Assembly: GCA_944393125.1 (NCBI GenBank)
Contig: CALXZB010000004.1
Span: 1 to 63,659 of the forward strand
Length of the DNA: 63,659 bases
Direction of reading: 5' to 3'
Source of the DNA: an uncultured Clostridia bacterium
Lineage (GTDB): Bacteria > Bacillota > Clostridia > TANB77 > CAG-508
Below are positions 10,264-49,000 of the stretch, piece after piece; positions within the stretch are counted from its first letter, which is position 1, and every line of letters starts with the position of its first letter. The translations under genes were made by a program, and so were the position numbers. Under the pieces are notes generated by a model. The model was not told where the DNA came from and ran no database searches. It was given only the letters and a program-made list of their open reading frames with translations.

Positions 10264-10300
10264 ATTTTCGCCGTGTGGCTCCCTCCTTTTCTGTTATTTT

Positions 10301-10353
10301 ATTCTATAATATATGTTCATTTTTTTCAATACTATTTACGAAAGTTTTTTCGT
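10301..10353 (-). promoter_or_regulatory. Putative sigma-A promoter of the yhaO-like operon with an adjacent Cheo/LexA-box-like palindrome
   Basis: On the minus strand: TTGAAA (10324-10329), 17-nt spacer, TAGAAT (10301-10306). Just upstream is the palindrome ACGAAA-GTTT-TTTCGT (10338-10353). Confidence 0.45.
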
Positions 10354-10361
10354 TTTTTTCT

Positions 10362-10391
10362 GTAAAAATAAAAAGACACAGTTTGTGTCTG
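10362..10391 (-). terminator. Rho-independent terminator after the T4SS coupling protein gene
   Basis: On the minus strand, hairpin AGACACA-AAC-TGTGTCT followed by TTTTTATTTTT, 8 nt after stop 10399. Confidence 0.75.
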
Positions 10392-10398
10392 TATCCTT

Positions 10399-12456
10399 TT
10401 ATTCATCTATTGGTCCAAATAATTCATCAAATTTGGCTTCAAGTTCTTTTTGTAAGTCATATGTATCTTCTTTAGCAGTTTCATTTTGTTTTATATTACT
10501 TGGATTTTCTTCTATTTCTTCTTTGTTTGTACTTGTATTTTTTTCATTATCATTAATATCTTCTTCAAACATGTCATCTATTGACTGAGAATTATTGGCG
10601 TTTATTTTTTCTCCTATTTTAATTGGTTCTTTATCTTCTTTTTTAGGTTCTTCTTCAAATAAATCATCTAAAGATTCTACTTTTAAATTTTGAGCTTCTT
10701 TTTCAGATTTATCTTCTGTCCATGGGTTGTATGGATTAAATTTTCTCCAAGTTCCTCTATCTTTAACTGCTGCATCATTATGACTTATTTCTGCTCTTTT
10801 TAGTGCAGTTGCCATATTTTTGTGTTTGAAGTAATAAAATTTATTTGCTTTTACAGGTTTTATTCCTTTTTCAAATATGATACATAAATCATTATCCATT
10901 CTTCTTAATTCATCAGGTGTCATTAATGCTCTTGCCATTACTTGGTCTGATATACTTTGTCCTGTTCTATAATATTTCCTATCTTTACTTATTGAAATAC
11001 TATCTCTTTCAATTGTCTTTTCTCCCAATGCTTTTGAGAAATATTCTACTGTTTTATATGAATTACTTCCTAAAAATACATGTGTATCACAGTTTCCTAT
11101 AATTGTTTCATATGATTTTTCATAAACAGCTTCTAATTGGTCTAAATTTTGTAATATTACACTAAATGATATTTTTCTACTTCTTGAAGTTGATATTTTT
11201 TTATCAAAGTCAGGAACTTTTCCTATATTAGCAAACTCATCTAATATAAAATATGTTGGAACTTTTAATGCTCCTCCATTTTCATCAGCATAATTATATA
11301 ATTGTTGTATCATTTGTGAGAAAAATATTGTTAATAAAAAGTCATATGCTGTATGTGTGTCTGAAGATATAACATATACTGCCGTTTTTTTGTTTCCAAT
11401 GTCCTCAAAATTTATTGTGTCTGTTGATGTTAATTCTGCAATTTCTTTTGAGTCAAATTTTCCTAGTTTTGATTGCAATGTACTTAATATTGAGCTATAT
11501 GTTTTTTCTGGTGCTATTTCTATTGATTTATAATTCATTCTTGCTGGATGGTCATATGGCAATTTACTTATTAATTCTGTGAGCAAATTGCTTCCACCAT
11601 TTGAATTTGCAGCTCTTACTAGTTCAGCACAACTTGCTAAGTTCTGTTCTTCTTCAGGTCTTGTTGCCATTAAATAATATATCAATGCCTTTAATAGCAT
11701 TTCTGCAGAATCATCCCAAAATGGGTCTGATCCTCCTCCATCTGTTTTTTGTCCTTTTACTATTGTATTAGCAATTACATCTACATCTATTTCTGATGAA
11801 ATATGCATTAATGGGTTATATCCATCACTATTTTGTGGTTTTACTAAGTTTAGAACTTTTATTTCATAACCATGTTCTTTTAAATACCCTGCTGTTCTGT
11901 CATATAGTTCTCCTTTAGGGTCAGTAAATACATATGAGCCTAACATTTGATATGCATTAGGAATTGAATATGATGCTGATTTACCAGAACCAGAACCTCC
12001 GACTACTAATACATTGACATTTCCTCTTTTATCTACTGGTAAATAATTGTCTTCTGCTAATATTATTCCTTTTTTATTACTTAATATTTGATATTGCTCT
12101 CCATTTTTACTCCAATCACTAGAGCCATGTTCAAAATCTGTATATTCGTTTTTTGGTGCTGATCTTGCAACTCCTACTATAAAAAATATTGCATATATAA
12201 TTGTGAATAAGCCAATATTTTTAAAATATGCTCCAAATAAATTTAAAGATACAACTTCCCCTAATCCTCCAAAAGGATTTTTTATTGTTTCAACAAATTT
12301 TGCAATTCCAGCTCCTAAATCTTTTTCTACTGATGTTGTATTAGCTCCTAATGTTATAGGCACAATTAATACTATGGCTATAAATAACCATAGTATTGCA
12401 AAAATTATAAAATACTTTTTATTTCTTCTTAATGCTCCTTCTACTTTATAATTCAT
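10399..12456 (-). CDS. Type IV secretion coupling protein, VirD4/TraG family
   Basis: 685 aa. N-terminal TM helices, Walker A VVGGSGSGKSAS, FTDPKGELY motif, Walker B YFILDEFANIG, and a long acidic C-terminal tail. Confidence 0.9.
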   Translation of the reverse strand: MNYKVEGALRRNKKYFIIFAILWLFIAIVLIVPITLGANTTSVEKDLGAGIAKFVETIKNPFGGLGEVVSLNLFGAYFKNIGLFTIIYAIFFIVGVARSAPKNEYTDFEHGSSDWSKNGEQYQILSNKKGIILAEDNYLPVDKRGNVNVLVVGGSGSGKSASYSIPNAYQMLGSYVFTDPKGELYDRTAGYLKEHGYEIKVLNLVKPQNSDGYNPLMHISSEIDVDVIANTIVKGQKTDGGGSDPFWDDSAEMLLKALIYYLMATRPEEEQNLASCAELVRAANSNGGSNLLTELISKLPYDHPARMNYKSIEIAPEKTYSSILSTLQSKLGKFDSKEIAELTSTDTINFEDIGNKKTAVYVISSDTHTAYDFLLTIFFSQMIQQLYNYADENGGALKVPTYFILDEFANIGKVPDFDKKISTSRSRKISFSVILQNLDQLEAVYEKSYETIIGNCDTHVFLGSNSYKTVEYFSKALGEKTIERDSISISKDRKYYRTGQSISDQVMARALMTPDELRRMDNDLCIIFEKGIKPVKANKFYYFKHKNMATALKRAEISHNDAAVKDRGTWRKFNPYNPWTEDKSEKEAQNLKVESLDDLFEEEPKKEDKEPIKIGEKINANNSQSIDDMFEEDINDNEKNTSTNKEEIEENPSNIKQNETAKEDTYDLQKELEAKFDELFGPIDE

Positions 12457-12483
12457 ATATTAAACACCTTCTCTTTTGTTTGA

Positions 12484-12777
12484 TTAATGTGATATTCCTG
12501 TATCTTCTCTATTCATTTTAATTTTATTTACTTTTTGTCTTCGTATTTCTGCTACTTCTCTTCTTACTGCTTTTCTTTTTGCTAAAATTTCAAGAGTATT
12601 TTTTTCATATTTTCCAAATGTTATTCCTTTACTAAAATCAAGTGTAGTAGCTTCATATTTAGCTCCACAAACAAGTTCCTTTTTTTTATCATTAGGACTT
12701 GGATTTGTTGCTACTATGTATAAACTTCCTTCTCCTGCTCCTTTAGACTTTTTTGGATCTACTGTGTGACTTCCCAT
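12484..12777 (-). CDS. Hypothetical 97-aa protein with basic C-terminal helix, in the coupling-protein operon
   Basis: ORF with an AAGGAGG SD, 27 nt upstream of the T4CP start. C-terminal AKRKAVRREVAEIRRQKVNKIK. No family recognised. Confidence 0.6.
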   Translation of the reverse strand: MGSHTVDPKKSKGAGEGSLYIVATNPSPNDKKKELVCGAKYEATTLDFSKGITFGKYEKNTLEILAKRKAVRREVAEIRRQKVNKIKMNREDTGISH

Positions 12778-12792
12778 AGTAAATTTGCCTCC

Positions 12793-13320
12793 TTAAACAT
12801 TACCTTTATTTTCTCTTATTTCAAAAGCGAAATAAGGCTTATTAGGTTTTAATTTGCATCTTCCCTTTACTTTATTTTCTTTTTCATCAAAATAAAGTCT
12901 AGGTTTTAATTCTTCTGTAGTTTCAGGATCTATTACACAAATATCCCTTTTCATATTTGGGGTATAATTAAATTCTTTAAATTCCTGTTCTTCTTCTGAA
13001 TATAAAGTATTAAATTTGAAGGAACCTGGATTTTTTGAAATTCTTACCTCATCATCTATCAGTAATCCTGAATTTATCACTACTCTTTCTTTAGCAAATG
13101 ATAAAATCACTATTTGATCACCTTCACTATGTGGCTCGTCAACAAAAAAGGTTTTTCTTCTTGATTCACCTCTTATTTCTTCAATGAAGTCCAATCTTTC
13201 AAGAGTATATTTAGGATACTCATTTAAATATTCCTCTTTTGTCTTATTTATTTGATATATTACTGTGTTTACTCCTTTAGGATCTGTTATGCTAAAATGT
13301 TTTCCTTGTAGCATATCCAT
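12793..13320 (-). CDS. Hypothetical 175-aa protein, first gene of the coupling-protein operon
   Basis: ORF 12793..13335. A GAGGTG SD favours Met6 (MDMLQGKHF), so the start is set at 13320. No family recognised. Confidence 0.6.
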   Translation of the reverse strand: MDMLQGKHFSITDPKGVNTVIYQINKTKEEYLNEYPKYTLERLDFIEEIRGESRRKTFFVDEPHSEGDQIVILSFAKERVVINSGLLIDDEVRISKNPGSFKFNTLYSEEEQEFKEFNYTPNMKRDICVIDPETTEELKPRLYFDEKENKVKGRCKLKPNKPYFAFEIRENKGNV

Positions 13321-13386
13321 ATTTTTACACCTCATTTCTATGCTTTAATCCATAGACTATCTTATGTTTACGAACTCACAATATTT

Positions 13387-13415
13387 ATTTTACTATATTT
13401 ATGTAATTTTGTCAA
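13387..13415 (-). promoter_or_regulatory. Near-consensus sigma-A promoter for the 175aa-97aa-T4CP operon
   Basis: On the minus strand: TTGACA (13410-13415), 17-nt spacer, TAAAAT (13387-13392). It lies between the J-protein stop (13440) and the operon start. Confidence 0.6.
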
Positions 13416-13439
13416 TACTTTGGCTTATTTTTAAGTATT

Positions 13440-14321
13440 TTAGACTCTCCTTGGATTAAATTTTGATATTTGTTTTAATCTTTTAAATATTTCTGTTTCT
13501 TCTTTTGTTAATTTTTCGGGAACTACTATTTTTATTTGGGCAATTAATTTTCCTCGTTCTCCTTTTGAATTTTTATAACCTTTTTCTGGTATTTCTATTG
13601 TTTCACCTGATTGTATTCCACTTGGTATATAAATTTGTGTTTTAGTATCATCTATTGAATTTACTTTTGCCTTTGTTCCTAAAGCCGCTTCCCATGGTGA
13701 AATTGGTACTATTGTATATAAATCTTTTCCATTTAGTTTGAATTTTTTTCCATCTTCTATATTTATTTTAATATATAAATCTCCATTTTTTCCACCATTT
13801 TTTCCGTCTTTTCCTTGGCCTATTAAGCGAATTTTTTCACCATTTTGAATCCCTTCTGGAACTTTAATTGTTATGTTTTTTATTTTTCCTTCTAAATCTT
13901 TTAATCCTATTGTTTTTTCAGCTCCGTAAAATCCATCTTCTATTGTTATATTTATTTCTGTTTCTATATTTTCTCCCTTTACAGCAGGAATCTTACTCTG
14001 TGCTAATTCTTCTTTTATATCACTATTTCCAAAAAACATTCCAAAAAATTCTCCTGCAATTTCTCCAGACGTTTTTGTTTTCTTTCTTCTATATCCTATA
14101 TTATAGTTCCATGTTCTATCATACTTTTTTTTAGTAATAGGATTTGATAATATTCTATATGCTTCATTTACGTCTTTTATTTTTTCTTCTGCAACTTTAT
14201 TTCCTACATTTACATCTGGATGATACTTTTTTGCTTGTTTTCTATACGCATTTTTTATTTGTTCGGCTGTTACTTTACTGTTTTCTAGCTCTAGTATTTT
14301 GTAATAATCTTTAAATCTCAT
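13440..14321 (-). CDS. CbpA-like J-domain co-chaperone (DnaJ family lacking the zinc finger)
   Basis: J domain with HPD (KKYHPDVN) plus DnaJ C-terminal beta domains. No CxxCxGxG repeats. The ATG at 14321 is preceded by a GGGAGGA SD; the longer track ORF starts at a TTG inside the SD. Confidence 0.85.
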   Translation of the reverse strand: MRFKDYYKILELENSKVTAEQIKNAYRKQAKKYHPDVNVGNKVAEEKIKDVNEAYRILSNPITKKKYDRTWNYNIGYRRKKTKTSGEIAGEFFGMFFGNSDIKEELAQSKIPAVKGENIETEINITIEDGFYGAEKTIGLKDLEGKIKNITIKVPEGIQNGEKIRLIGQGKDGKNGGKNGDLYIKINIEDGKKFKLNGKDLYTIVPISPWEAALGTKAKVNSIDDTKTQIYIPSGIQSGETIEIPEKGYKNSKGERGKLIAQIKIVVPEKLTKEETEIFKRLKQISKFNPRRV

Positions 14322-36758: not shown

Positions 36759-39551
36759 TTATAAATTATTTAACTCTCTTACTCGTGTTCTCATATTTTC
36801 TACTTGTTTTTGAGTTATTCCTTTTACACTACCAAATCTCTTCAAATTTTCTTCTAATTCTTTATTGCTCTTAGAATTTTCTGCTAATTTAACACTTGCT
36901 ATGCTTTCTTTATCTGCCCATTTGTCAGAATTGTTCTTATTTACTTTCATTCCTTTTATTATTAGACTGTCATCCTGTATTCCATATTGTTTATATTCAT
37001 ACATTGCATTCATAGCTTGCTTAATTTTTTCCTTATCTCCCTTATCAATATTCAATTCATTTTGAAGTCTTCTTCTCATAGCTTTATCTTTCATAAATGT
37101 TTCTTTAGCTTTTTCTCTCATTACTTCATTATATCTATCTCCATAGTATTCTTTTTCAACCTGCTCTCTTTTTGCTTCTATAGATTGATAATTTCTTTTT
37201 ACATCTGCTTCAACTCTATTAATAGTTCCTGTACTTAATGCTGCACCAATACCAGCTGCTGCTGTTGTATTTTTTAATGCTGTTGAAGGATCTCCAGAAG
37301 CAATTCCTGCTGCTAGTCCTATTCCTCCCAGTGCTAAAGCTGATGCTGCTCCTGCTCCAAATTTTATTGCATCCCCTGGAATTTCTTTTATACCTTGTTT
37401 TGCAGCAGATTTTAGTTCATTTCCTAATAGTCTTGTATTAATCGCAATTGTACTTCCAATTTTCGACCTTTTCTTTTCTTTGACATTTGGAGTTTCTGGA
37501 ATATCATTCGATTCTATATCTTGAGTTTCAGCTTCTATATGTTCTTCTATATTATCTTCATCACTAGCTTGTTCTTGTTGCATAAACCTTGCTTCATCTT
37601 CATTATGTTGATCTTCTAGTTCTTGATATGCTGCAAAATCCTCATCAGACCAATTACTATTATCACTTATTGCTTCTCTTTGAAGTTCTTCCAAATATTG
37701 TCTTTCGTTAGCAAGTCTTGCTTGTTCTTGGCTAGTATTCAATTCTCTACTTCTACTATCAGAATCATTTGTTGAGTCAGTTCTAGTTTCTTCTCCAGAA
37801 TTAGGATCTCCACTAACAAGTCCTTCATATAATCTCTGTTGAGTATGTTCTGAGTCTGGTTTTATAAATAGTTTATTTTTGTCTTCATTTTCTTTGCCTT
37901 TACTTTCTATTTTACCATTTCCTCCCCCATGTCCACCTTTTGCAAATCTTCCTAATGAACTTATAGCTGACATTGTAAATGCTGCTCCTGCTGCTCCTGC
38001 AAATAATCCTGGTGAAGATGCTTTGTTAAATCCAAACATTGTCCTTAAGAATTTTTCTGCTGGAACCATAAATCCAATTGTAACTAATGCATACATAACA
38101 TTTGTTGATACTAGTTCAAAAGCCATTGTTACGAAAATTGTATATAATATTAAGTGGAATGGTTGAATTGCTAGGTTGAATATATATTCTTTTAACCACA
38201 TATCAAAAGCTTGTGCTTTTCCGTCATGTATTTTATCTACAGGATATGTTAGTGCAACAAAAGGTGCAATAACTGTCAAAAACAGTAAGTATAATAACCT
38301 CTTTAAATATGTAAAAGTAAAAACTAATGTAAATATTACTAATGCAAAAAATGCTAATGTATATCCTACATTTTCCATATTATCAGATGCTTCTTGAGCT
38401 TGAATTCTATATAGTCCCATTAAATTTGTTGGCCATTTTATATATTCTTCTCCATTTTCTTCATATAAGTATTGAATTTCATCTGTTTCTAACTTTTTAA
38501 TATTTTCTTTCAATGTTTCTTTATCTTCTACTCCGCTGATAACTCCTATAGTTACATTGTTTCCTAATGTGTTATTTAATATATTAGTTATACTTTCAAC
38601 AACACTATGAGCAAATATCATTATATAATGCATTAATACAATTAAGCATACTGCAATAATCCAATCTCCTAGCATTTGTTTATATTTTGCCTTTTCTGCT
38701 GCTATACTTGTTGCCATCATTCGAATTCCTATATATATTAATACAATCATTGAGCCAAGTAAAGCAATATTTCTTATTATAAAATACCATTTTGCAATTA
38801 TATTTCTTAATTCATAAGATGAATTATTTACAGATGTAGTAATTTGTTCTCCATCTTTCTCATAATAATATCTTTCAACCTTTTTGTCAGAATCACTTTG
38901 CATATCTTTCCATTCTTCAGCTGTAACAGTTATTGGCTGCGAAGATGTTACATTGCCATCTGAATCTACTGTATTATATTCAACATGTAATTGTTTCGGA
39001 TTGAAAATGTTAGCATCAAATAATAATATTTTTCCTGTAAATATTTCCTCTGGACTTATTGTATATGTTGGAAGTACTAATGTATCTCCACAAGCATCTG
39101 CCACAACTGAGCTAACTGCAACCATGACATTTCCAAGTGCTTCATATCCAATAACAGCTCCAACTACAACACCCGTTAAAGCTGTTTTTATCAACGCTCC
39201 TCCAACAAATTTTAGTGCTGCAACTAATAATCCTGGTGCAAAACATGCAGCAACAACAACTAGTACTATTGCTATAACCCATGGTATTATTTTTTCCCAC
39301 CAATTTGCATCAGAACTATCCATTGCTATAGTAGCATCTGTTCCCATAACTGATTTTTGTATTATGTTCATAATACCATCGCCTATTCCCTGGAGTAAAC
39401 TACATATAGGTCCTATCAATATTCCTCCAACACCAGATCCTTCTTCACTGGCATATACTTTTTTTGGTGTTCCTACATTTATAAGTGCAAGAAATATACA
39501 TATACATATTATTAACTTATATAAAAAATTTTTCTTTGTCATAAAAGTCAT
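36759..39551 (-). CDS. T4SS polytopic membrane protein, TcpH/VirB6-like, with long charged C-terminal region
   Basis: 930 aa. Signal peptide ending VYA-SE, then many TM helices in roughly the first 520 aa. An acidic, Ser/Asp/Glu-rich segment follows, then a Gly/Ala-rich hydrophobic segment and a basic tail. It lies directly downstream of VirB4, as VirB6 analogues do in Gram-positive systems. Confidence 0.7.
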   Translation of the reverse strand: MTFMTKKNFLYKLIICICIFLALINVGTPKKVYASEEGSGVGGILIGPICSLLQGIGDGIMNIIQKSVMGTDATIAMDSSDANWWEKIIPWVIAIVLVVVAACFAPGLLVAALKFVGGALIKTALTGVVVGAVIGYEALGNVMVAVSSVVADACGDTLVLPTYTISPEEIFTGKILLFDANIFNPKQLHVEYNTVDSDGNVTSSQPITVTAEEWKDMQSDSDKKVERYYYEKDGEQITTSVNNSSYELRNIIAKWYFIIRNIALLGSMIVLIYIGIRMMATSIAAEKAKYKQMLGDWIIAVCLIVLMHYIMIFAHSVVESITNILNNTLGNNVTIGVISGVEDKETLKENIKKLETDEIQYLYEENGEEYIKWPTNLMGLYRIQAQEASDNMENVGYTLAFFALVIFTLVFTFTYLKRLLYLLFLTVIAPFVALTYPVDKIHDGKAQAFDMWLKEYIFNLAIQPFHLILYTIFVTMAFELVSTNVMYALVTIGFMVPAEKFLRTMFGFNKASSPGLFAGAAGAAFTMSAISSLGRFAKGGHGGGNGKIESKGKENEDKNKLFIKPDSEHTQQRLYEGLVSGDPNSGEETRTDSTNDSDSRSRELNTSQEQARLANERQYLEELQREAISDNSNWSDEDFAAYQELEDQHNEDEARFMQQEQASDEDNIEEHIEAETQDIESNDIPETPNVKEKKRSKIGSTIAINTRLLGNELKSAAKQGIKEIPGDAIKFGAGAASALALGGIGLAAGIASGDPSTALKNTTAAAGIGAALSTGTINRVEADVKRNYQSIEAKREQVEKEYYGDRYNEVMREKAKETFMKDKAMRRRLQNELNIDKGDKEKIKQAMNAMYEYKQYGIQDDSLIIKGMKVNKNNSDKWADKESIASVKLAENSKSNKELEENLKRFGSVKGITQKQVENMRTRVRELNNL

Positions 39552-39562
39552 TTCATTACTCC

Positions 39563-41515
39563 TTAATAATTCTTTCTAGACTCTACCAATTTATTTAAGT
39601 TTGTTTCCACAAATTCAAATTCTTTTTGTGTAGGCATTATTTTTAATATTGCTGTTTCTTGCCCTACTTTAAATAATCCTTCACCTTTTCCACAAGTAAC
39701 TAAAAATCCTGCTTCTCCTTCGCTCAATTTAAAAACTTCTTTCAAATATTGAATTTCTGATTTATCTTGTGCTAAAAATAATTTTGTATCTGAAGATGTA
39801 AGAACAGCTTGTGCTTCCGGCTTTTCATAAAAGTCTTGGAATCTTTGAGAAACTACTGCAAGTGAAACATTTCTCTTTCTTGCACGTCTTGCCATTGTAT
39901 TTAAAAAGTCTACAGCTTCTGGGTATGGCAATAACATCCATGCTTCATCAACAATAATTCTCTTTTTTCTTGCTTTTCTTCTATCTTCGCTATTTTTCTT
40001 TACAAGTTTTTCCCAAATCCATGTTAAAAGAATTTGTTGTGCTAATGGTCTAGCAAATTTTTCTTCTAGTTGAGAAATGTTTAAATTGATGAATGGTACT
40101 CCTTCTGTTAATTCAAATGTTGACTGTCCATCAAAATATGCCATTTGCCCATTGTATTCTCTTATATATTGTTTCATTACTTTTAGCAAATAACTATAAT
40201 GAAATCTATAATCTTCATTTGTATTTTCTTGAGCTTTCTTTTGTAATCTTTTATACCAAGAACCTACTGTTGGCATTTTTTTCTTTGCTTTAAATAGTTT
40301 GTCTCCTCTATTTGCATTACTTGATTTTTCATATAAACTGCTTGGATCACTTGTAATTCCTATACTTTCATATTCTTCAGCTACAGCCTCAGCTATTATC
40401 TGTTTAGTTAACTCATTTACTTCTTTACTTCTTGTACTTCCTCTAGCCATTGTAAGTAATGATTGTGTTACATCTTCTACTTTACTTTCTACATTAATTG
40501 TTAGTCTTTCTCTTCCTGTTATTTCATCTTTTATCGTTTCTGTTTCCAAATCAAATAAATTTATTACTGTCTTAGATGTAGGACTAATAACAACATTTAT
40601 TCCTCCTAGTGATTCAGCTACTATAGTATATTCTCCTTCAGCATCAAGAGCTAAACTTTCTATTCCCATTAAGATTGAAGATCTGCTTATTAATGTTTTC
40701 ATTGTTACAGATTTACCTGCACCTGATTTAGCAAATATAACCATATTGTAATTAGTTAATGAATTATGAAAATTATCGAATAATATAGGAGTTCCTGTTT
40801 GCTTGTTAAATCCTAATGGTATTCCTGTCGAATGACTAACATCAGATGTTGTAAATGGAAATACTGTTGACATAGATCTCCTATCAAATGTATGTTGTTT
40901 GTTTATTTTATCTTCCATTAATGGCAAATTAGATTTAAATGCATCTTCTTGCATTGCCCATGCTGTTTTTATTCCAACCAAAGATTTTGACATTTCTGTT
41001 GATAATAATTTTGTTAATCTGTCTAATTCTTCCAAACTATATGAAAATATTGTTGAAACAATAGAAGCTTCATATAATCTATTAAATCCTGCTGCAATCT
41101 CATCTCTTAATTGCTCTGCCTCAAGTCTTTTTTGAGTTAAATTACTTTCTCTATTGATATTTCCCTTATCTGCAGCAACAATTCTTTCTGTTTCTAATTC
41201 ATTTATTATTCTATTTAATTCATTTTGAGATTTTGCTTCTTGTATTGGTTTTATATATATTGATGTATTTATATCTCCAAAAAAATACATATCTCTAAAT
41301 AATTCAGGAAATGTACACATTCTTGGTAAACCTGATACAAAAAAACTCCTTGCATATTTTTTAACATTTGATATTATCTCTAGATGATCTATATTACTTG
41401 CATCTATTCCAGATGGAGCAATTAATTCTTTTATACTCTTTTTTTTCAAAAACTGTGTTGATTGTCCTTCATTATACAACTGCATTTTTTCTTCTTCCTC
41501 TTGTTTTCTTGCCAT
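39563..41515 (-). CDS. T4SS ATPase VirB4 (TraE/TrsE/PrgJ-like)
   Basis: 650 aa with an AAGGAGG SD. Typical Gram-positive VirB4 N-domain (IAPSGIDASNIDHLEI...YARSFFVSGLPR), Walker A AKSGAGKSVT, Walker B RIIVDEAWML. Confidence 0.9.
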   Translation of the reverse strand: MARKQEEEEKMQLYNEGQSTQFLKKKSIKELIAPSGIDASNIDHLEIISNVKKYARSFFVSGLPRMCTFPELFRDMYFFGDINTSIYIKPIQEAKSQNELNRIINELETERIVAADKGNINRESNLTQKRLEAEQLRDEIAAGFNRLYEASIVSTIFSYSLEELDRLTKLLSTEMSKSLVGIKTAWAMQEDAFKSNLPLMEDKINKQHTFDRRSMSTVFPFTTSDVSHSTGIPLGFNKQTGTPILFDNFHNSLTNYNMVIFAKSGAGKSVTMKTLISRSSILMGIESLALDAEGEYTIVAESLGGINVVISPTSKTVINLFDLETETIKDEITGRERLTINVESKVEDVTQSLLTMARGSTRSKEVNELTKQIIAEAVAEEYESIGITSDPSSLYEKSSNANRGDKLFKAKKKMPTVGSWYKRLQKKAQENTNEDYRFHYSYLLKVMKQYIREYNGQMAYFDGQSTFELTEGVPFINLNISQLEEKFARPLAQQILLTWIWEKLVKKNSEDRRKARKKRIIVDEAWMLLPYPEAVDFLNTMARRARKRNVSLAVVSQRFQDFYEKPEAQAVLTSSDTKLFLAQDKSEIQYLKEVFKLSEGEAGFLVTCGKGEGLFKVGQETAILKIMPTQKEFEFVETNLNKLVESRKNY

Positions 41516-42665
41516 TTGATTTTCCTCCTTCTTCTGTATTTGATAATTTCTCAGCTGCCAAATTTTTAATTTCTGTTCCTAAGTATTGTTCATTATCTTC
41601 AAGTATCATTCTTGCAACATCATTGATTATATCTTCCATATTGTCTTCTTTTTCTTTTGCTCTCATTTCAAGTTCACTTTGTGCTTCTTGTATTTTTTCT
41701 TTTGCTTTAATCATAGCTTTTTCTTTTATAATCTTATCTAATTCTTTAATTTTCTTTTCATATACATCTGGAGCTGTAGAATATAATTCGCTAAATCCTG
41801 CTTTTACAAGTCTATCTAATGTTAATGTTTCTGCTTCATCTCTGTTATATGCTATATATAATAATTCAATAAGTTCATTTGTTCTTAATATTTTGCCTTT
41901 AACACCACATGCTGACAATGAAGAAATTATTGATTGTGCTCGTGTATATAATTCTGAAAAGGCTACATTTTTTAATTCTGCTTTGTCCAATTTTTCGTTA
42001 CTTGCTTCACTTGCATAATAAGGAACAATAATATAATAATTTTTACTCAATATATTTTTGTTTAAACTCATTCTTTCTGTATCTTTAACAATAGAAACTC
42101 CATATTCATATAAATTTGATTGTTTTGTTAGTTCATATTTTGCCTTTGCCAATTGTTCATCTGTGTACTCATCTGAATCTAACATTTCTTCATATCTCAT
42201 TTTCATATTTTCATACTTATTTTCTATTTCTTTAATTTTCTCTCTATATACAGTCAAACTGTTTTCTAAATTGATTGCTCTTGTTTGAATATATATTTGA
42301 ATAGTATTTCTTAAGCTGTTTAGAAATTGTACGAAACCTTCTTCTACACCATTTTTTTCTACTCCTGACATTAAGTCATAATTTACACCTTGGCATTCTA
42401 CTACCATTAAAAATCTAGTTGAATTTTTTTGTATAATCATATTATCTTCTACTTCATCAAATTCCATAAAATTGAATATTGAATCTTTATTTGAATTTAC
42501 ATTTGTAGTTCTATTTTCTTTTTTTGTTTCGCTTACATTTTGACTCATTTTTTGCTTATATTTCAAATATCCCCAATATATTCCTAGTCCTAGTAAAATT
42601 ATTACTACTGCTCCTAGTATATATATAAGAATTTGTATTAGTTGTTCAGTAGATTGACTATCCAT
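41472..42665 (-). CDS. Membrane-anchored protein resembling a VirB4 N-terminal domain without an ATPase module
   Basis: 397 aa with one N-terminal TM. The body shows the same motif order as VirB4 N-domains (FLMVVECQGVNYDL ... FVQFLNSL ... IQIYIQTR ... ILRTNELIELLYIAYN). No Walker motifs. It overlaps the PrgI-like gene by 8 nt and VirB4 by 44 nt. Confidence 0.65.
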   Translation of the reverse strand: MDSQSTEQLIQILIYILGAVVIILLGLGIYWGYLKYKQKMSQNVSETKKENRTTNVNSNKDSIFNFMEFDEVEDNMIIQKNSTRFLMVVECQGVNYDLMSGVEKNGVEEGFVQFLNSLRNTIQIYIQTRAINLENSLTVYREKIKEIENKYENMKMRYEEMLDSDEYTDEQLAKAKYELTKQSNLYEYGVSIVKDTERMSLNKNILSKNYYIIVPYYASEASNEKLDKAELKNVAFSELYTRAQSIISSLSACGVKGKILRTNELIELLYIAYNRDEAETLTLDRLVKAGFSELYSTAPDVYEKKIKELDKIIKEKAMIKAKEKIQEAQSELEMRAKEKEDNMEDIINDVARMILEDNEQYLGTEIKNLAAEKLSNTEEGGKSNGKKTRGRRKNAVV

Positions 42666-43005
42666 TTAACTTTTCCTCCTTTGCATATACATATAATTTT
42701 TTGCTTTTTCTTTTGAATTTTATATATCTAATTAAAACATCATCTATATTTTCTCCACCTACTTTTTGTGATATTTTTAAACCATTTGCTTCAGGTACTT
42801 TAAATGTTCCTATTGCATATCCTATACCTGCAAATATTAATGTAATTATGATTCCTAACATTGTTAATCCTAATAAACTAAACAAAAAATAAAATATAAG
42901 GCCAACAACTCCTCCTATTGTTGATGTTACTATTGATTTTGTTGAAAATATAAATAATATTCTTCCTTCTCCTTTGACATTTCTTGGTAAATTATATGTT
43001 CCCAT
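42658..43005 (-). CDS. PrgI-family / VirB3-like small T4SS membrane protein
   Basis: 115 aa. MGTYNLPRNVKGEGRILFIFSTK followed by two TM helices. AAGGAGGA SD. Position is immediately upstream of the VirB4-related genes. Confidence 0.75.
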   Translation of the reverse strand: MGTYNLPRNVKGEGRILFIFSTKSIVTSTIGGVVGLIFYFLFSLLGLTMLGIIITLIFAGIGYAIGTFKVPEANGLKISQKVGGENIDDVLIRYIKFKRKSKKLYVYAKEEKLNG

Positions 43006-43049
43006 TTTTTCCTCCTTTGTTATGATATAATAATTCTATTATATTATAA

Positions 43050-43092
43050 CAAAAAAAATCGATAAATGGAAGTATTTATCGATTTTTTTTTA
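43050..43092 (-). terminator. Strong bidirectional-type terminator after the third pilin gene
   Basis: Perfect 10-bp stem ATCGATAAAT / ATTTATCGAT with a 6-nt loop, flanked by a 7-nt A-run and an 8-nt T-run. It lies between the pilin gene (stop 43107) and the PrgI-like gene (start 43005). Confidence 0.75.
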
Positions 43093-43106
43093 TTTTTTAT
43101 ATTAGA

Positions 43107-43466
43107 CTACTTATTTAGTCCATCAGCAAAATTGAAAACCATAGTAGCTATTGTTGAAGCTCCGAAAATTAATATTGCACCAACAACATATGGAATCATT
43201 GTCTTTTTATATTCTGCTTTTTCTTCTGCTGAACCCATCATATATTTTATACCTAGTACCATTAAAACTAATACAGATACAACCATTCCAATTGTTGATA
43301 ATATACCCATTAATTTTTCTCCCAATTCTGATATTCCTTCTGTACCTTCAGGATTAGGTTTTAATTCTCCTGGGCTTGTTGTTGCAAACACAACTGAACC
43401 TAACATAGCTACCATTATTAATACTGAAATTAATGTAACTAAAATTTTCATTGTTCTTGTTTTCAT
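43107..43466 (-). CDS. VirB2/TrbC-like pilin paralog 3
   Basis: 119 aa. Signal peptide (..VVFA-TT), then two TM helices separated by the conserved loop GIKYMMGSAEEKAEYKKTMIPYVVG. AAAGGAGG SD. Confidence 0.75.
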   Translation of the reverse strand: MKTRTMKILVTLISVLIMVAMLGSVVFATTSPGELKPNPEGTEGISELGEKLMGILSTIGMVVSVLVLMVLGIKYMMGSAEEKAEYKKTMIPYVVGAILIFGASTIATMVFNFADGLNK

Positions 43467-43530
43467 TATATAAACCTCCTTTTATTTTTTATTTATATTT
43501 TAATCTGGTTTTCCAGAATTTTAATAACTA

Positions 43531-43947
43531 TTATATGTTTGATAATACTCCCATCATTATTTTCCATATTCCAAATGCTCCGAATGTTATCACACAGCCT
43601 ACTACATATGGCATTAAAAGTTCTTTTGTTTTTGCTTGTTCCTCTATACTTCCTGTCATAAGTTTTATTCCTATTACAGCTCCTATTATTACTGATATAG
43701 AAATTCCTAATGTAAGTAATGCATTATATATTATATTTACTGTATGAACTATTTGATTTTGATCCACTACTGCTTGTTCAGGATCTTTTTTGCCTTCTTC
43801 TTCTCCATCTTTAATAAATTCTTCTCCTGAGTTTTTGATATCCTCCCAAAAACCTGCATTTGAAACTGGTATAAACATAAATTGAAATATTAGAATAATA
43901 ATTATTATTTTAAATATTATGTTTGTTACTTTTATTTCCAATTTCAT
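43531..43947 (-). CDS. VirB2/TrbC-like pilin paralog 2 (divergent)
   Basis: 138 aa. Signal-like N-terminus (..VSNA-G), an acidic mature N-terminus, and the loop GIKLMTGSIEEQAKTKELLMPYVVG between two TM helices. The SD GAGGGG abuts the ATG, so the TTG two codons downstream may be the real start. Confidence 0.7.
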   Translation of the reverse strand: MKLEIKVTNIIFKIIIIILIFQFMFIPVSNAGFWEDIKNSGEEFIKDGEEEGKKDPEQAVVDQNQIVHTVNIIYNALLTLGISISVIIGAVIGIKLMTGSIEEQAKTKELLMPYVVGCVITFGAFGIWKIMMGVLSNI

Positions 43948-43964
43948 CCCCTCTTTTTTGAATC

Positions 43965-44339
43965 TTATATTTTTATAGCTATATTGTATATTACGGTAGC
44001 AATGGTTGGAATAGCAAACAACAATATTGCTCCTATTACATAAGACATCATTGTTTTTTTATATTCAGCCTTTTCCTCTATGCTTCCTAACATATATTTG
44101 ATACCGATAATCATCAAAATAACTACTGACAAAATTGTTCCTACTACATTTATTACTCCTAATATTATTTCTGTCATACCTTTTAGTCCTTCGTCATTAT
44201 CACGAGCTCCCATTGGATTATATTGTTCAGGATTATCTAGTGGATTGTTTATTGCATGTACATTATAATTGCTAAAAATTGCTAATACAATTGCAAATAA
44301 TAATATTATTTTTATCACTATCATTATTCGATTTTTCAC
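43965..44339 (-). CDS. VirB2/TrbC-like pilin paralog 1
   Basis: 124 aa with a GTG start and a GAGGTGA SD. Signal peptide (..NVHA-I) and the loop GIKYMLGSIEEKAEYKKTMMSYVIG between two TM helices. Confidence 0.75.
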   Translation of the reverse strand: MKNRIMIVIKIILLFAIVLAIFSNYNVHAINNPLDNPEQYNPMGARDNDEGLKGMTEIILGVINVVGTILSVVILMIIGIKYMLGSIEEKAEYKKTMMSYVIGAILLFAIPTIATVIYNIAIKI

Positions 44340-44383
44340 TTTGTATCACCTCATTTTACAATTTTATACACTATATTATATAA

Positions 44384-44412
44384 ATTATACAATATTTGAT
44401 GTTTTCTTGCAA
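44384..44412 (-). promoter_or_regulatory. Consensus-like sigma-A promoter of the pilin cassette
   Basis: On the minus strand: TTGCAA (44407-44412), 17-nt spacer, TATAAT (44384-44389), about 45 nt upstream of the first pilin start. Confidence 0.65.
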
Positions 44413-44523
44413 GTTTTTTTGATAAAATTTGTAAGTTTTTTTATAAAAATAGCTATTTTAAGCTAAATTTTTAGTTTGTTTTTCTGTGATTTTCAAAATT
44501 TTTTAGTCAAAATTTAAAATAGC

Positions 44524-44555
44524 TAGATTAGAAAACTTTTAAATTTTCTAATCTA
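44524..44555 (-). terminator. Terminator hairpin after the 449-aa gene
   Basis: Perfect 12-bp stem TAGATTAGAAAA / TTTTCTAATCTA with an 8-nt loop, about 50 nt downstream of stop 44607. Confidence 0.6.
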
Positions 44556-44606
44556 ACTATTGGTATATTTCTAAAACATTTTTGTTTTTCACCGATTTAT
44601 TTAACT

Positions 44607-45956
44607 TTATTCTATATTAAATGAGTATACAAAATTCATTTCATCTTCTAATTTCATTATAATATTAAAATTTTTGTCTTGCATATTCTCTCCATCTCTC
44701 TTAATTTTGGCTTTGTATATATATATTTCTCCATCTTGTATAAGTTCTACAAATTCTATTGTATTTTCTTTTGAAATATTATTTTGTATATATTTTTGGA
44801 AATCATCTTCTGTTGGATATCTGCTACTTCTAAATGTAGTATCTAATTTATTGTATAAATATTCATAATCTTTATCTTTTAATGCCTCTTCTATTTTTTG
44901 TACATTTAGTACTACTTTTTCTTCACTTGTTGCAGTATTATATTGTTCAATAAATTCCGGTAAATCTACAGTATATAAATCTAGGATTAAATTATAATTC
45001 ATTACTGCATTTTCATTGAAAATATAGTAATTTTCATTTTGGTCTATGCAAATATATTGTACATAATCTTCATATACATTATATTTATAACTTTGTAGTG
45101 TTGCAGTAATTATGTTTCTTCTATTTTCTTCAATATATTTTTCATATTCTGATATTCCATTAAATTTGTTTGTCTTGTATTCTTCATCTAATTTTTCATA
45201 CAAATAATCTATGTTATCATACATAACAGATTTAGTATAGCTCTTTAAAAGTTCTTTTGCATATTCTTCATCGTTGATATATTCATAATTGTATTTATTG
45301 TATATTCTATTTTCAATTTCAGTTATATCTATTTTTACTTCTGTTTTATCAAATTGATGTTTATTAGCATATTCATAAGTATATATATTAAATGTTAAAT
45401 TATTATCATCTAATGCTAGAACTAAATTAAACTTTTCTTTTTCAAGGCTGTCTTTTTCTACTATTTGTCCAGATATGTAATAAAACTTTAGAGTTTCTGT
45501 TATTTCTCTTACATACATATTTTCAATCAATATTTCAATATCTTTATAATTTCCTAGTTTTTCTTGTAAATTGTTAGTAGTTAGTGCCATTTCTTTTATA
45601 CTGTTTTCATCAAAAAAACTATATATACGTTTTTTTACTGTTTCTTTTTCCTTCTCTATTGTTTCATTTAAATTTTCCATTCCTTCATCTTGTTCAAAAA
45701 TTAAAATGTCTTCTTCTGTTTTATTTAACTCACAAAGTGCAAAAAAATATTGATTTATAACATTCTTTACAGTAAAAAACTCATTTTTTATTGTAACTCT
45801 TTCTATACTATTTTTAATTTCAGTATTTGATACATTTTCATTTGGAGTTATATCATTATTGATTTTTTTTAGTTTCAGTATCATTATTAAAATTATTAAC
45901 ATTAATATTATTAGTATAGTAATTAATATAATTATGAATTTTGAAATTTTTTTCAT
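44607..45956 (-). CDS. Membrane-anchored T4SS-associated protein with repeated modules (candidate VirB8/TcpC analogue)
   Basis: 449 aa with one N-terminal TM. Internally repeated module (DYLYEKLDEEYKTNKFNGISEYEKYIEEN versus YEYLYNKLDTTFRSSRYPTEDDFQKYIQNN). The functional assignment is inference. Confidence 0.6.
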   Translation of the reverse strand: MKKISKFIIILITILIILMLIILIMILKLKKINNDITPNENVSNTEIKNSIERVTIKNEFFTVKNVINQYFFALCELNKTEEDILIFEQDEGMENLNETIEKEKETVKKRIYSFFDENSIKEMALTTNNLQEKLGNYKDIEILIENMYVREITETLKFYYISGQIVEKDSLEKEKFNLVLALDDNNLTFNIYTYEYANKHQFDKTEVKIDITEIENRIYNKYNYEYINDEEYAKELLKSYTKSVMYDNIDYLYEKLDEEYKTNKFNGISEYEKYIEENRRNIITATLQSYKYNVYEDYVQYICIDQNENYYIFNENAVMNYNLILDLYTVDLPEFIEQYNTATSEEKVVLNVQKIEEALKDKDYEYLYNKLDTTFRSSRYPTEDDFQKYIQNNISKENTIEFVELIQDGEIYIYKAKIKRDGENMQDKNFNIIMKLEDEMNFVYSFNIE

Positions 45957-46013
45957 ATTTATCTTCCTTTAAATTTTATATTTTTTCATTATTGAGTAAT
46001 GGAACTAGATTTA

Positions 46014-49000
46014 TTATCCTCCAGAAATAACCTCTTCACCAGATGCATTTGTATATTTTTCTTGAGTAAATAACAACCAATTTGCATATTTTCTATCATA
46101 TGTTGTACTTGAATAATTAAACGGTTCATAATTTCTTCTAAGTTTTTCTGCATCAAGTTTTCCATTTTCATCTAAAGAATTTCTATATGCATCTGGAAAT
46201 TCATTAATATTTCCATATTGATAACATACTGCTGTTAGAGCATCCATTTGAGCTTGTGAAAAATTGAATTCTGGCAAATAATCAGCAATTTTGCCTTTTA
46301 CTGAACTTTGGAATCCTGATATTATATCATTTAAGACAGTTAGTACTGTGCTTTTATCCACTAAAGAACCTTCACTTAGTGATATTACATCAATTCCATA
46401 AGCAGAAAAATTACTTTGCCAGTTATAATATCCATTTCCAAATAGTGGATGTACTACTTTTGCATTAGATTCACTTGATATAAAAGTAGCTATTCCATAT
46501 GCAATATTATTATGACCATAACTTCCATCTTCGTAAACAATATAGTTCTTCTCATCTGCAGTTAAATATTTTGATGGAAATTTTGTACTTCGACCTGTTT
46601 CATATGCCCATAATGCTCCGTTTTCCCATAGTTTAATATAATTTTCTAACGCATTTCCTATAACTTTGTTCATAGAATTTGGATTAATAATTTGAATATT
46701 GTACTCTGTCACACCATAATCTTCGCCTGTTGCCTTATATAATAAGTATTTTGTTAAATCAATCATTTCGACTGTATCTTCACTATTATTTAATATTTGT
46801 ACTAATATTTGTAGCCCACTAATAATATTGCTTCTTGCAGTTCTATATTTTATAAATAAAGTAACAAAATTATCTTCTTCTGATTTTTTATCTGTCTTTT
46901 CTATTGTTTCTGCTGGAGATGAAATATATTTCGTGGTTAGTGTGGTACTTGTGTTATTAACAGTTCTATTTATTGTTTTATAATAATATTTACTCCATAA
47001 ATTTGTTACACGAGTTATTACATTTGTATATGTTTGTAAATATTCACGTTGTTTTGCCTGTCTAAATCCTTCTGCTAATCCAGCTGTATCTATTGCATCT
47101 TCTTTATCTGGAGAATCTTCACTTGGATATTCATCATCTTCAAAGTCATTGCTTGATTGGGTAGTCGTAGGTTCCGCTACTTGTTTTTCAGCTTTTTGCG
47201 TGTAATCAGCAATCCATACATTTGCTTTTGTTAAAATTATGTTTATGGTGTTTGTCTTAGTTATAATTGTAGTAGTTGTTGTATATTGCTGTTCTAATTC
47301 TTTGGTAAATGGTCCTCCATATTCATTTTTATTGTATATAATTTGGTTATCACCACTATATGCTACATTTACAGTAATATCATCTGTAATTACTTTTGTT
47401 GATTTAGTATATGTATCTGTCATTACAGTTGTATTTTCTGTTAAATTATCGTATATTGTAATTTCTATCTCACTATTATATACTAAGTCTGCTAATTCAA
47501 GAACAAAGTCTTTATCTTGTGATATAACTAATAATGCCCATAAATAGTCAAATGGCATTTTATATTCATTTGTTAATTGTTGGTAATTTATTTTAGTTGT
47601 TATCATACTATATTGAGTTACATTTTTTTGTTCTTGTTCAGGATCATCTGATGTTACTATTTCTGTTGTTTCATTCCAAGTTGCAACTTTTGCATAGTAG
47701 CCTGCAGATCCTGAAGTTGTCCATTGTGAAGATGAATCAACATTAATTGCAGAACCAAATCCACCAGTTCCATTTCCTTGTCCATTATCATACTTATACA
47801 ATAATGGATCAATATAAGCTCCATTTAATTTTATTGCAAAATGTAAGTGTGGTCCTGATCCTATTCCTGATTTTCCTGATAATGCTATAACTTGTCCTTT
47901 TGACACAACATCTCCTACTGATACAAGTAATTGACTATTATGTAAATACCATGATTGAAAGCCGTTACCATGATCTATTGTTATAAAGTTTCCATTGAAA
48001 TCATTATAATCTGAATTTACTACTGTACCAGATTCTGTTGCATATACTTCTGTTCCAGTGGTAACACCTATATCTATTCCTTGATGATATTTAGACGCAC
48101 CATCTACGTCGATATTTCTATATCCAAAAGGTGATGTTATTGAAGCTGTTGGGCTTGTTGGCCATTTAAGTGGTGCGTTTTCTTCATCACTCGTTTCAAT
48201 GCTACTATTTGTATCACTGCTTGTATTTTCATCTTCATTACTAGTAATATTTTCACTACCAAAATTAGGATTGTCAAAATAATTTCCTCCATTTATTACT
48301 TTTAATGCAGAACCTTGCCACTCAGGATGACATGAGCTAGTTCCTGGGTTATCATGCATTGAACTTGCTTGTCCACAATCATTGTAATCTGGATAGAGTC
48401 CACTTACCCATCCAGGTGTACACCAAGTCACCTCGTTAACGTAAAATTCTAATATATTTGTACCACTATGATGTCCCCATTCATTTTTTGCATCTTCTCC
48501 TTTTATATCACAGATAATACATGGAATTATTTGTTCTTGACCATTTTTGTCTATGTAATAATAATCTATGTAATCTCCAACTTTTCCAAATTTATCTGTT
48601 GTAGCTACAGTATACCTTCCATTTATTCTTCCAAATCCTTCGTTATCAAAAGTCATTCCAGCTTGTTCTTTTAATTTTAATTGTTCATGTAAACCTATAA
48701 GTTGCCAACTATTAAATGTATATATTGTACCATAGTTTTGACCTTGTGGTATTTCAATAACATCTCCTTTTTCAATTATTTCTGCCTTACCATCTGTTCC
48801 AATTTCATAGTTTCCACCAGTTGATGATTGATATCCTTTTTCAATAGTAAAATGATTTAATGCTTTTTCTTTAAACTCATCTGATCCTGTTTGATTATAC
48901 TGGTCTATATAAGATTGAAATGTTTCTGGATCTACATATGTTAAAGTCTCTACAGTTCCATCACTTTTTTCTCTTTTTAATTTTATAATTCCTTGCACAT

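Follow-up and report, generated by a model that had tools for sequence, protein, structure and literature searches.

A candidate substrate-receptor operon of a chromosomal type IV secretion system in uncultured gut Clostridia

Contig CALXZB010000004.1 of an uncultured Clostridia bacterium (GenBank assembly GCA_944393125.1), whose 63,659 analysed nucleotides are called the window here, carries on its minus strand a three-gene operon (13415..10374) made up, in order of transcription, of a promoter, a leader, the genes for two small proteins of 175 and 97 aa (p175 and p97), the gene for a VirD4-like type IV coupling protein (T4CP) and a terminator. We propose that this operon is the substrate-receptor module of a chromosomally fixed, vertically inherited type IV secretion system (T4SS) of the Gram-positive type. 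The T4CP would form a hexamer at the membrane, anchored by two transmembrane (TM) helices, beside the VirB4 channel complex that is encoded 24 kb away. Its flexible acidic tails would offer a terminal helix, YDLQKELEAKFDELFGP, which recruits cytoplasmic p175. A conserved surface of p175 would hold the tail, so that p175 would act as an adaptor or receptor subunit of the T4CP and present cargo or a specificity factor, most plausibly the basic, hypervariable product of the middle gene (p97 in the window); the variable patches of p175 (residues ~64-100 and 154-175) would change along with that product. The substrates would more likely be proteins than relaxase-processed DNA, because no relaxase was found near the modules and the p175 domain is joined elsewhere to protein-interaction and signalling modules, not to DNA-processing ones. 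We give the model in this form about an even chance. An interaction of some kind between p175 and the tail motif, a claim drawn from comparison of sequences, is probable.

The coupling protein, its tail motif and p175

The T4CP (685 aa; 10399..12456, minus strand) is, by all sequence features considered, an intact, bona fide CD1115-family VirD4-like coupling protein. It matches the Pfam families T4SS-DNA_transf (PF02534; E=1.5e-87, 294.8 bits against a cutoff of 20.1), TraG-D_C (1.7e-37) and TrwB_AAD_bind (1.8e-27), and scores 452.4 bits with the NCBIfam equivalog model conju_CD1115 (NF045973), for which the cutoff is 250; in PADLOC only mad8 was matched, and weakly (E=1.2e-6). Two N-terminal TM segments (~aa 16-40 and 78-100) precede an ATPase with an all-alpha domain, in which Walker A (GGSGSGKS) occupies aa 153-160 and a Walker B-like sequence (YFILDEF) aa 402-408. 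The protein ends in an acidic tail of ~130 aa (aa 556-685; 38 Asp and Glu residues against 18 Lys and Arg; isoelectric point 4.3). The length, Walker motifs, TM anchor and acidic tail described in the initial annotation are thus all present, and its statement that this is the sole coupling ATPase of the window holds, no second PF02534 protein having been found among the window proteins scanned.

Across 76 orthologs, the Walker and TM blocks are 91-96% conserved, and identity to the window sequence in blocks of 20 residues lies at 0.84-0.98 throughout the ATPase core except in a short loop (aa 481-500), whose block reaches 0.59. Of four pairs compared, three have a ratio of nonsynonymous to synonymous substitution rates (dN/dS) of 0.07-0.12, and the least diverged one (L103; comparison loci are referred to by L numbers) has 0.69, a value resting on only 23 substitutions. 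The conserved core and the low ratio in three of the four pairs show that the T4CP is no degraded remnant of a different element.

The tail evolves in a wholly different manner. Over the hypervariable acidic segment at aa 601-660 (10477..10656, minus strand), per-block identity to the window sequence falls to 0.04-0.22 in the same orthologs, and it recovers to 0.79 across the final 25 residues. There lies the near-invariant C-terminal motif DTYDLQKELEAKFDELFGPIDE (aa 664-685; 10402..10467, minus strand), an amphipathic helix whose terminal sequence YDLQKELEAKFDELFGP is essentially invariant; KFDE[LI]F falls inside the last 20 residues in 78 of 79 orthologs. When the tail was modelled as a helix, L668, L672, F676, L679 and F680 shared one face. 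Such a pattern, in which a disordered tail evolves fast but closes with a conserved amphipathic peptide, is what marks a short linear docking motif. The motif is also found in T4CPs that are just 56%, 43% and 33% identical to that of the window. Further semi-conserved acidic-aromatic motifs occur upstream of the terminal helix (window 10600-10700; aa 595-633), namely [LI]DD[LM]FE[ED] in the subclade of the window and DDAP[IVM]LP[QM] in more distant T4CP orthologs; these may be extra docking sites.

The gene preceding p97 encodes p175 (12793..13320, minus strand; the ribosome-binding site (RBS) favours the ATG at 13320), the proposed partner of the T4CP tail. Neither p175 nor p97 matched any entry in Pfam, PHROGs, NCBIfam or PADLOC, and their description as proteins of no recognisable family stands. 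A search returned 3668 p175 homologs, none carrying a name. An AlphaFold2 model built with a diverse alignment (mean predicted local distance difference test score (pLDDT) 83.7, predicted template modelling score (pTM) 0.77) is all-beta, with two beta-rich lobes at residues 6-94 and 99-167; a model made on a shallow alignment (at least 79% identity) reached a pLDDT of 50 and was discarded. Foldseek searches of the PDB and BFVD yielded generic Ig-like folds only (best E ~0.01, template modelling score at most 0.3), and a profile search of PDB sequences gave no meaningful match. We are confident from the model that p175 represents a beta-sandwich-like scaffold of an undescribed family. No p175 homolog was found in 72,556 plasmids and 50,697 phages.

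Four lines of comparison suggest that p175 binds the tail helix: deep adjacency of the two genes, fusions that unite domain and motif, a split arrangement of these parts in the loci L084-86, and the specificity of the motif. Stand-alone p175 always adjoins a motif-bearing T4CP, beside which it is present in a single copy. Homologs only 39% (L114) and 33% (L112) identical to p175 are still encoded immediately upstream of a T4CP, which is 56% identical to that of the window and ends in YDVQKELEIKFDELFGS in the first case and is 43% identical and ends in LDLQKELEKKFDELFGS in the second; the chromosomal contexts of these two loci are unrelated, with enolase in one and spoIID-spoIIID-mbl in the other. 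In a profile search of 1.84 billion representatives, the p175 domain was also found in cytoplasmic proteins of other bacteria, 500-1138 aa long, that contain Sel1 repeats, a Ser/Thr kinase or TIR. Among 37 independent representatives of these fusions, 16 have a single copy of the strict motif, [KR]F.[ED][LIM]F, which is placed 57-92 residues upstream of the p175 domain; in most of the rest, the 20-residue segment that corresponds to the T4CP tail can be aligned. At L084-86, a T4CP-like ATPase (33% identical) ends in KKLEDKWDELFGP, and a p175-Sel1 protein, which lacks a strict motif of its own, is encoded ~3 kb away; the locus also has a VirB4/HerA-like ATPase. Specificity was counted over 547,492 residues of open reading frames (ORFs) from 120 loci. 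The motif occurred 102 times, comprising 92 T4CP tails, 7 p175 fusions and 3 background cases. Six conjugative CD1115 T4CPs on plasmids have neither the tail motif nor a p175-like neighbour, and a tblastn search of plasmids with the 24-aa tail, which could reveal only near-perfect matches, found nothing.

Two further candidates were rejected. The 161-aa gene upstream of the L084 T4CP has no detectable homology to p175. The TIR protein of L091, which bears a C-terminal motif and is accompanied by a p175-Sel1 protein, had been considered as an independent two-protein case; the pair resembles one fusion gene and was probably split by a frameshift.

It could be argued that p175 and p97 are mere neighbours of the T4CP and that similar composition, acidic and helix-prone, produced the shared motif by coincidence, given that acidic tails are common in T4CPs and that the evidence from the close clade is phylogenetically non-independent. 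This is hardly credible in view of a background of 3 in 547,492 residues against 99 occurrences in T4CP tails and p175-linked proteins, the near-fixed spacing of the motif upstream of the domain in fusions, and an adjacency of p175 and T4CP that outlasts both changes of context and a drop in identity to 33% and 43%.

A different reading of the same binding evidence is that the p175 domain is a portable translocation signal, like XVIPCD or BID, with stand-alone p175 and its Sel1, kinase and TIR fusions being secreted by way of the T4CP tail helix. Sel1 repeats, Ser/Thr kinases and TIR are typical effector-like domains, and in L084-86 the p175-Sel1 protein has two ATPases as neighbours, one T4CP-like with the motif and one VirB4/HerA-like. 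We nonetheless regard this reading as unlikely. A motif copy of their own is present in most fusions and points to intramolecular or self-association instead of docking to a T4CP, and several fusions occur in loci with no T4SS genes in view. Moreover, strong purifying selection on p175 and its strict single copy beside the T4CP are more in keeping with a subunit of the machine than with cargo. The initial suggestion that the genes next to the T4CP encode an adaptor or the secreted substrate is supported for p175 on comparative grounds (adjacency, the tail motif and the fusions of motif and domain), whereas a role as relaxosome factor is unlikely.

The surroundings of the fusion genes have recurring features of their own. 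TIR genes are paired with small RyR-domain genes immediately upstream of p175 fusions (L081/L083, 1508-2925; L091, 4365-5299). Near p175-Sel1 genes there recurs a set consisting of an OmpA/MotB-like gene, an Endonuclea_NS_2 nuclease, a soluble TrwB_AAD_bind ATPase with a weak PADLOC match to mad8, a 384-aa protein of no assigned family and an M48 peptidase (L089/L090, 1-6723; L091, ~13-16.4 kb; L084, 5316-6179). These genes may together form an undescribed conflict system employing a T4CP-like ATPase.

The hypervariable middle slot and the operon leader

The middle gene encodes p97 (97 aa; 12484..12777, minus strand), a basic (isoelectric point 9.8), hydrophilic protein with only 5 homologs among 5.8 billion proteins. 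An ORF of 50-140 aa occupies this slot between p175 and T4CP in nearly every locus having both genes; one exception is L112, in which no slot ORF is present and the p175 homolog has a C-terminal extension of ~50 residues instead. The slot proteins fall into 14 unlinked sequence clusters, which share no more than a short N-terminal motif, M-x-[NS]-x-T-V...AG, and an acidic C-terminus, and a Pfam search with ten diverse members gave sub-threshold noise only. The basic C-terminal helix noted earlier for p97 is real in the window; it is not conserved even within the species, being removed by a 51-bp indel in the conspecific locus L102 (98-99% DNA identity).

At this level of divergence (within species, 98-99% DNA identity), dN/dS is 0.74 for p97 and 0.06-0.17 for murF, cbpA and T4CP. 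In addition, strains whose cbpA and T4CP are near-identical to those of the window carry a wholly different allele of the middle gene, with synonymous divergence also raised. The replaced tract takes in p175 residues ~64-100 and 154-175 and the entire middle gene, and ends at the T4CP start codon. The slot does not look like the outcome of mere neglect, because its ORF is always open in stop-rich, AT-rich DNA. These patterns look like balancing or diversifying selection on the middle gene, or recombinational exchange of alleles, and suggest that the variable patches of p175 co-adapt with its product.

The whole operon is bracketed, as originally described, by a near-consensus promoter and a terminator. 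The sigma-70-type promoter TTGACA-17-TAAAAT (13387..13415, minus strand) is the best promoter-like site in the region, with 11 of 12 consensus matches. It is not a chance occurrence, because TTGAYA-N16-18-TAnnnT is kept at the equivalent place in 75 of 76 orthologous loci. An intrinsic-type, terminator-like hairpin with a T-run (10374..10390, minus strand) closes the operon. Between promoter and p175 lies a leader of ~65 nt with the inverted repeat CTATG-(loop)-CATAG (13338..13355, minus strand), directly 5' of the RBS GAGGTG (13333..13328). In an alignment of 47 loci, 96.6% of the cells of the repeat are paired and the pairs are almost invariant; because they hardly vary, the counts do not distinguish an RNA hairpin from a DNA operator, and the repeat may serve as an operator or as a hairpin that affects translation or stability. 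No structure was predicted by RNAalifold for the leader, and an Rfam scan of 10200-13600 found no match. The repeat is common to the same position in L001-L080, with a loop of 8-20 nt and a stem that is retained where the sequence or length of the loop changes; a conserved ACAWAAGAT box stands 5' of it.

Two separate modules in a fixed chromosomal setting

The window (~27% GC) is chromosomal DNA of a spore-forming member of the Clostridia and adjoins the replication origin, with dnaA and dnaN at 60.7-63.5 kb and rnpA, yidC, jag, mnmE, mnmG, rsmG, parA and parB at 51.8-60 kb. The operon is flanked by core genes, as had been stated: a DnaJ/CbpA-like gene and murF on one side and, by Pfam, an SbcD-like Metallophos gene and an SbcC-like SMC/AAA gene on the other. 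The sbcC-like gene is followed directly by an ORF of 374 aa (6086-7210, minus strand) without a Pfam or PHROG match, which is conserved, at 372-374 aa, in the conspecific contigs L102-L104. From the start of the T4CP (12456) it is 24.3 kb to the nearest gene of the T4SS cluster (36759) and 27.1 kb to VirB4 (39563). The gap of 24.3 kb, which confirms that the T4CP lies apart from that cluster, is filled with core and sporulation genes, including murF, SASP, ypeB, recR, ybaB, dnaX, tadA, spoIIR, murA, an abrB-like gene, rsmI and a gerM-like gene.

The T4SS cluster (36759..50424, minus strand) is of the Gram-positive type. It contains a 930-aa protein (36759..39551), probably a VirB6-like channel component, which has weak matches to transmembrane proteins of Mycoplasma integrative and conjugative elements (ICEs) and occupies the same place after VirB4 in other species; a VirB4-like ATPase (39563..41515; Pfam P-loop_TraG, DUF87 and AAA_10), whose matches to CD1110-family and Mycoplasma-ICE (Mbov_0397-like) VirB4 models are below cutoffs and whose best 120 homologs are all at least 86% identical; a 397-aa TraC-like and a 115-aa PrgI/VirB3-like protein (41472..43005; a PrgI match, and PF26593 TraC-like on orthologs); three VirB2/TrbC-like pilin genes for proteins of 119, 138 and 124 aa (43107..44339; Pfam T4SS_pilin and TrbC); and, at 44607..50424, an unassigned 449-aa protein, a 1134-aa cell-wall hydrolase with an M23 peptidase domain (Pfam) and an unassigned 331-aa protein, orthologs of which are found in all T4SS loci. 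Gene order inside the cluster varies: the module of the 331-aa, hydrolase and 449-aa genes lies between an S1-domain gene and the pilins in the window and L106-108, and after the VirB6-like gene in other species (L092-L101, ~14.7-21 kb), in which the S1 gene is not at that position. The hydrolase is itself variable, with M23 and/or phage-lysozyme-type domains and sometimes two genes. In some species, an insertion of ~3.4 kb between the ypeB and SASP homologs (L008, ~3298; L010, ~3344; L020, ~3973) lies apart from the T4SS cluster and encodes a paralog of the 930-aa protein that is 31-35% identical to it.

To follow the operon across species, one genome per GTDB species was scanned for T4CP relatives; at least 565 stretches matched, and the best 80 (64-86% identity) were examined. 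All come from metagenome-assembled genomes of uncultured gut Clostridia (human, Hadza, Nepali, Brazilian and rabbit samples), one being a complete chromosome of 1.549 Mb. The order murF-cbpA-p175-[small ORF]-T4CP-sbcD-sbcC-prfA-pcrA is kept in ~75 species representatives, across which T4CP and p175 (54-87% identity) are as conserved as murF; conservation of VirB4 is stronger still. The T4SS cluster is likewise found at the same place in other species, between parB and an ABC transporter with gerM, and none of the clusters examined there has a T4CP of its own. Both modules are carried by scaffold ERZ16268227:scaffold_228 (72.5 kb, another strain), with p175, the small ORF and T4CP at ~19-25 kb and the VirB4 cluster at ~38-60 kb. 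Comparison thus strongly supports fixation and vertical inheritance of both modules. It agrees with the old, fixed integration first put forward on the basis of the split arrangement; occurrence of the operon independently of the T4SS cluster, which would have spoken against the link between them, was not seen where it could be checked, since scaffold_228 holds both.

Two kinds of variation touch this locus. Between the T4CP terminator and sbcD there is an insertion hot-spot (L019, L022, L043, L074, L034, L027 and L075, at 12.0-17 kb) whose unrelated cargo includes a TetR regulator gene accompanied by genes for an MMPL-like transporter and a surface protein, an N6-methylase module of restriction-modification-like type, and genes for large proteins whose N-termini resemble those of type IV pilins; no p175-domain protein was found among these insertions. 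Furthermore, reassortment of alleles between the two modules is suggested by p175 identical to that of the window (P0001) and an 87%-identical VirB4 (P0200), both listed with a longest contig of 92,464 bp (the size of L102, BRZ_BK NODE_395), and by an 89%-identical p175 (P0026) on a contig of 71,167 bp (L110, scaffold_369), the same size as listed for a window-identical VirB4 (P0126); the hint is drawn solely from equal sizes in bp.

Neither the window ORFs (by Pfam) nor annotated relatives, within 10 kb of either module, include a relaxase, integrase or recombinase, and MobC, PcfB and DUF3801 were absent from the same regions. Judged locally by relaxase, integrase and mobility, both modules keeping one core-gene context across species, the locus is not a conjugative element. 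The T4SS might still move DNA, for instance in chromosomal exchange as the Mycoplasma ICE machinery does, with p175 and p97 as DNA-processing or relaxosome-type accessories. Its T4CP and VirB4 are members of families derived from conjugation (CD1115; CD1110-like and Mbov_0397-like), the T4CP neighbours in three of six conjugative relatives include a relaxase, MobC, PcfB or DUF3801, mosaic alleles between strains are consistent with frequent recombination, and TraD-TraM provides a precedent for a T4CP tail that binds a relaxosome protein. We consider DNA transfer quite improbable, given the lack of relaxase, MobC, PcfB and DUF3801 in the regions named, the absence of p175 from the 72,556 plasmids, and a p175 that is all-beta, contains no helix-turn-helix or ribbon-helix-helix (RHH) fold and is never fused to DNA-processing domains.

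Very improbable, in our judgement, is that the three genes form a self-contained conflict or defence module, with a T4CP-like ATPase, p175 as sensor and a hypervariable specificity protein, independent of the distal T4SS. p175 fusions do occur with TIR, kinase, RyR, Card1 and NB-ARC neighbours, their kinase and TIR parts match PADLOC models while T4CP-like ATPases weakly match mad8, and the middle gene behaves as a diversifying allelic cassette. Yet the T4CP of the window scores above the CD1115 equivalog cutoff and retains its TM anchor, p175 and p97 have no PADLOC match, and operon and T4SS cluster are comparably conserved and syntenic. In addition, the T4SS clusters of the clade are without another T4CP, whereas conjugative relatives keep one adjacent.

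Assessment and comparison with known systems

Several observations weigh against the adaptor model. The contact between p175 and the tail rests on comparison, and a motif this invariant leaves no variation for a covariation analysis. Stand-alone p175-T4CP pairs may descend from one ancestral arrangement, so that few independent events would be represented. Both modules were seen on one contig in two cases only, the window and scaffold_228, and the relaxase search covers the window and the 10-kb surroundings in relatives, not whole genomes. Finally, several p175 fusions lie in conflict-type islands with TIR, RyR, NB-ARC or kinase genes and no T4CP in view (L081, L087 and L091), and the ATPase of L084 has no TM segments; because of these two findings, the pair of motif and domain may be a general interaction module that is not specific to secretion.

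Three things appear new here: an invariant T4CP tail helix, its pairing with an all-beta domain family whose members are also joined to TIR, kinase and Sel1 modules, and, between the two genes, a hypervariable allelic cassette. To our knowledge, substrate selection by T4CPs is understood only for a handful of Gram-negative systems, and monoderm T4SSs beyond conjugation are almost uncharted. The operon offers a simple candidate recognition pair, an invariant helix of ~17 residues and a beta protein of 175 aa, in a T4SS that has turned into a core organelle, inherited vertically, of an uncultured lineage that is very abundant in human and animal guts and whose genome measures ~1.5 Mb. Such core, vertical inheritance implies a lineage-defining function other than plasmid spread, and a hypervariable cassette in the middle of the receptor operon gives a hint of discrimination or of an arms race. 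For annotation, the family provides an entry point to more than 3600 hypothetical proteins and to a set of multidomain proteins in which the module is combined with TIR, kinase or Sel1; for the gut-microbiome field, the T4SS is a candidate contact-dependent interaction system in a clade so far studied only by association. In the one relevant paper found, on a comparable uncultured gut clade (TANB77), the conserved surface machinery is a Tad-type pilus and not this T4SS (PMC11680825), and in the literature we found no description of p175, the tail motif or this split T4SS.

A more far-reaching version, which is speculative and which we rate as doubtful, takes the p175 domain and the KFDELFG helix as a portable recognition pair not recognised before: an entire order-level clade of uncultured, small-genome gut Clostridia would run a domesticated, relaxase-free T4SS for protein injection, p175-type domains would mark the TIR, kinase and Sel1 effectors of other Firmicutes for translocation, and the middle gene would be polymorphic cargo or a kin- or host-recognition determinant under diversifying selection. 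If true, gut commensal monoderms would thereby have their first described recognition code of an effector-translocating T4SS.

The proposed complex can be compared with two T4CPs whose tails bind small partners. TraD of the F plasmid has a disordered acidic C-terminal extension, the extreme terminus of which docks the small partner TraM and so links the T4CP to its substrate (the name of Pfam family PF12696 reflects this). The arrangement proposed here is alike in having a docking peptide at the end of the T4CP tail and a small partner encoded with the system, which we suggest is p175. It differs in that TraM is an alpha-helical, DNA-binding RHH protein of the relaxosome while p175 is all-beta and two-lobed with no relative in sequence or fold, in the lack of relaxosome genes, and in the peptide, an amphipathic helix of ~17 residues here and a terminal acidic-Phe peptide in TraD. 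In the Dot/Icm system of Legionella, the C-terminal tail of DotL is a platform for the adaptors IcmS, IcmW, LvgA and DotN, which select protein substrates. Shared with our proposal are small adaptors borne on the tail and a chromosomal, non-conjugative T4SS; Dot/Icm, in contrast, is a Gram-negative type IVB system with several unrelated adaptors, none homologous to p175, and a tail not known to end in an invariant helix of this kind, whereas the host here is a monoderm gut commensal. Searches of Pfam, NCBIfam, PDB sequences and Foldseek detected no homology between p175 and the known adaptors TraM, IcmS/IcmW, LvgA and PcfF.

The CD1115 T4CPs of conjugative plasmids and ICEs of Firmicutes belong to the same family as the ATPase of the window (31-39% identity to plasmid members) and have the same companions, PrgI and a CD1110-like VirB4. 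The conjugative members stand directly beside PrgI/VirB4 in five of six cases, with a relaxase/MobC or DUF3801 adjacent in three of the six, whereas the T4CP gene of the window lies on the chromosome, keeps its synteny across species, is separated by 24 kb from its T4SS and has no relaxase nearby.

The fusions invite comparison with the XVIPCD of effectors of the Xanthomonas X-T4SS, a C-terminal domain that is reported to bind the all-alpha domain of VirD4 (PMC8740702). XVIPCD is a conserved, portable domain of ~120-200 aa that is found on diverse enzymatic modules and recognised by the T4CP, and the p175 fusions share this modular logic. Unlike XVIPCD, the p175 domain is N-terminal or internal, its proposed contact is the C-terminal peptide of the T4CP, and many fusions bear that peptide themselves. 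Taken together, the proposed module is in function most like the TraD-TraM and DotL-adaptor complexes, and its fusions are most like modular recognition of the XVIPCD type.

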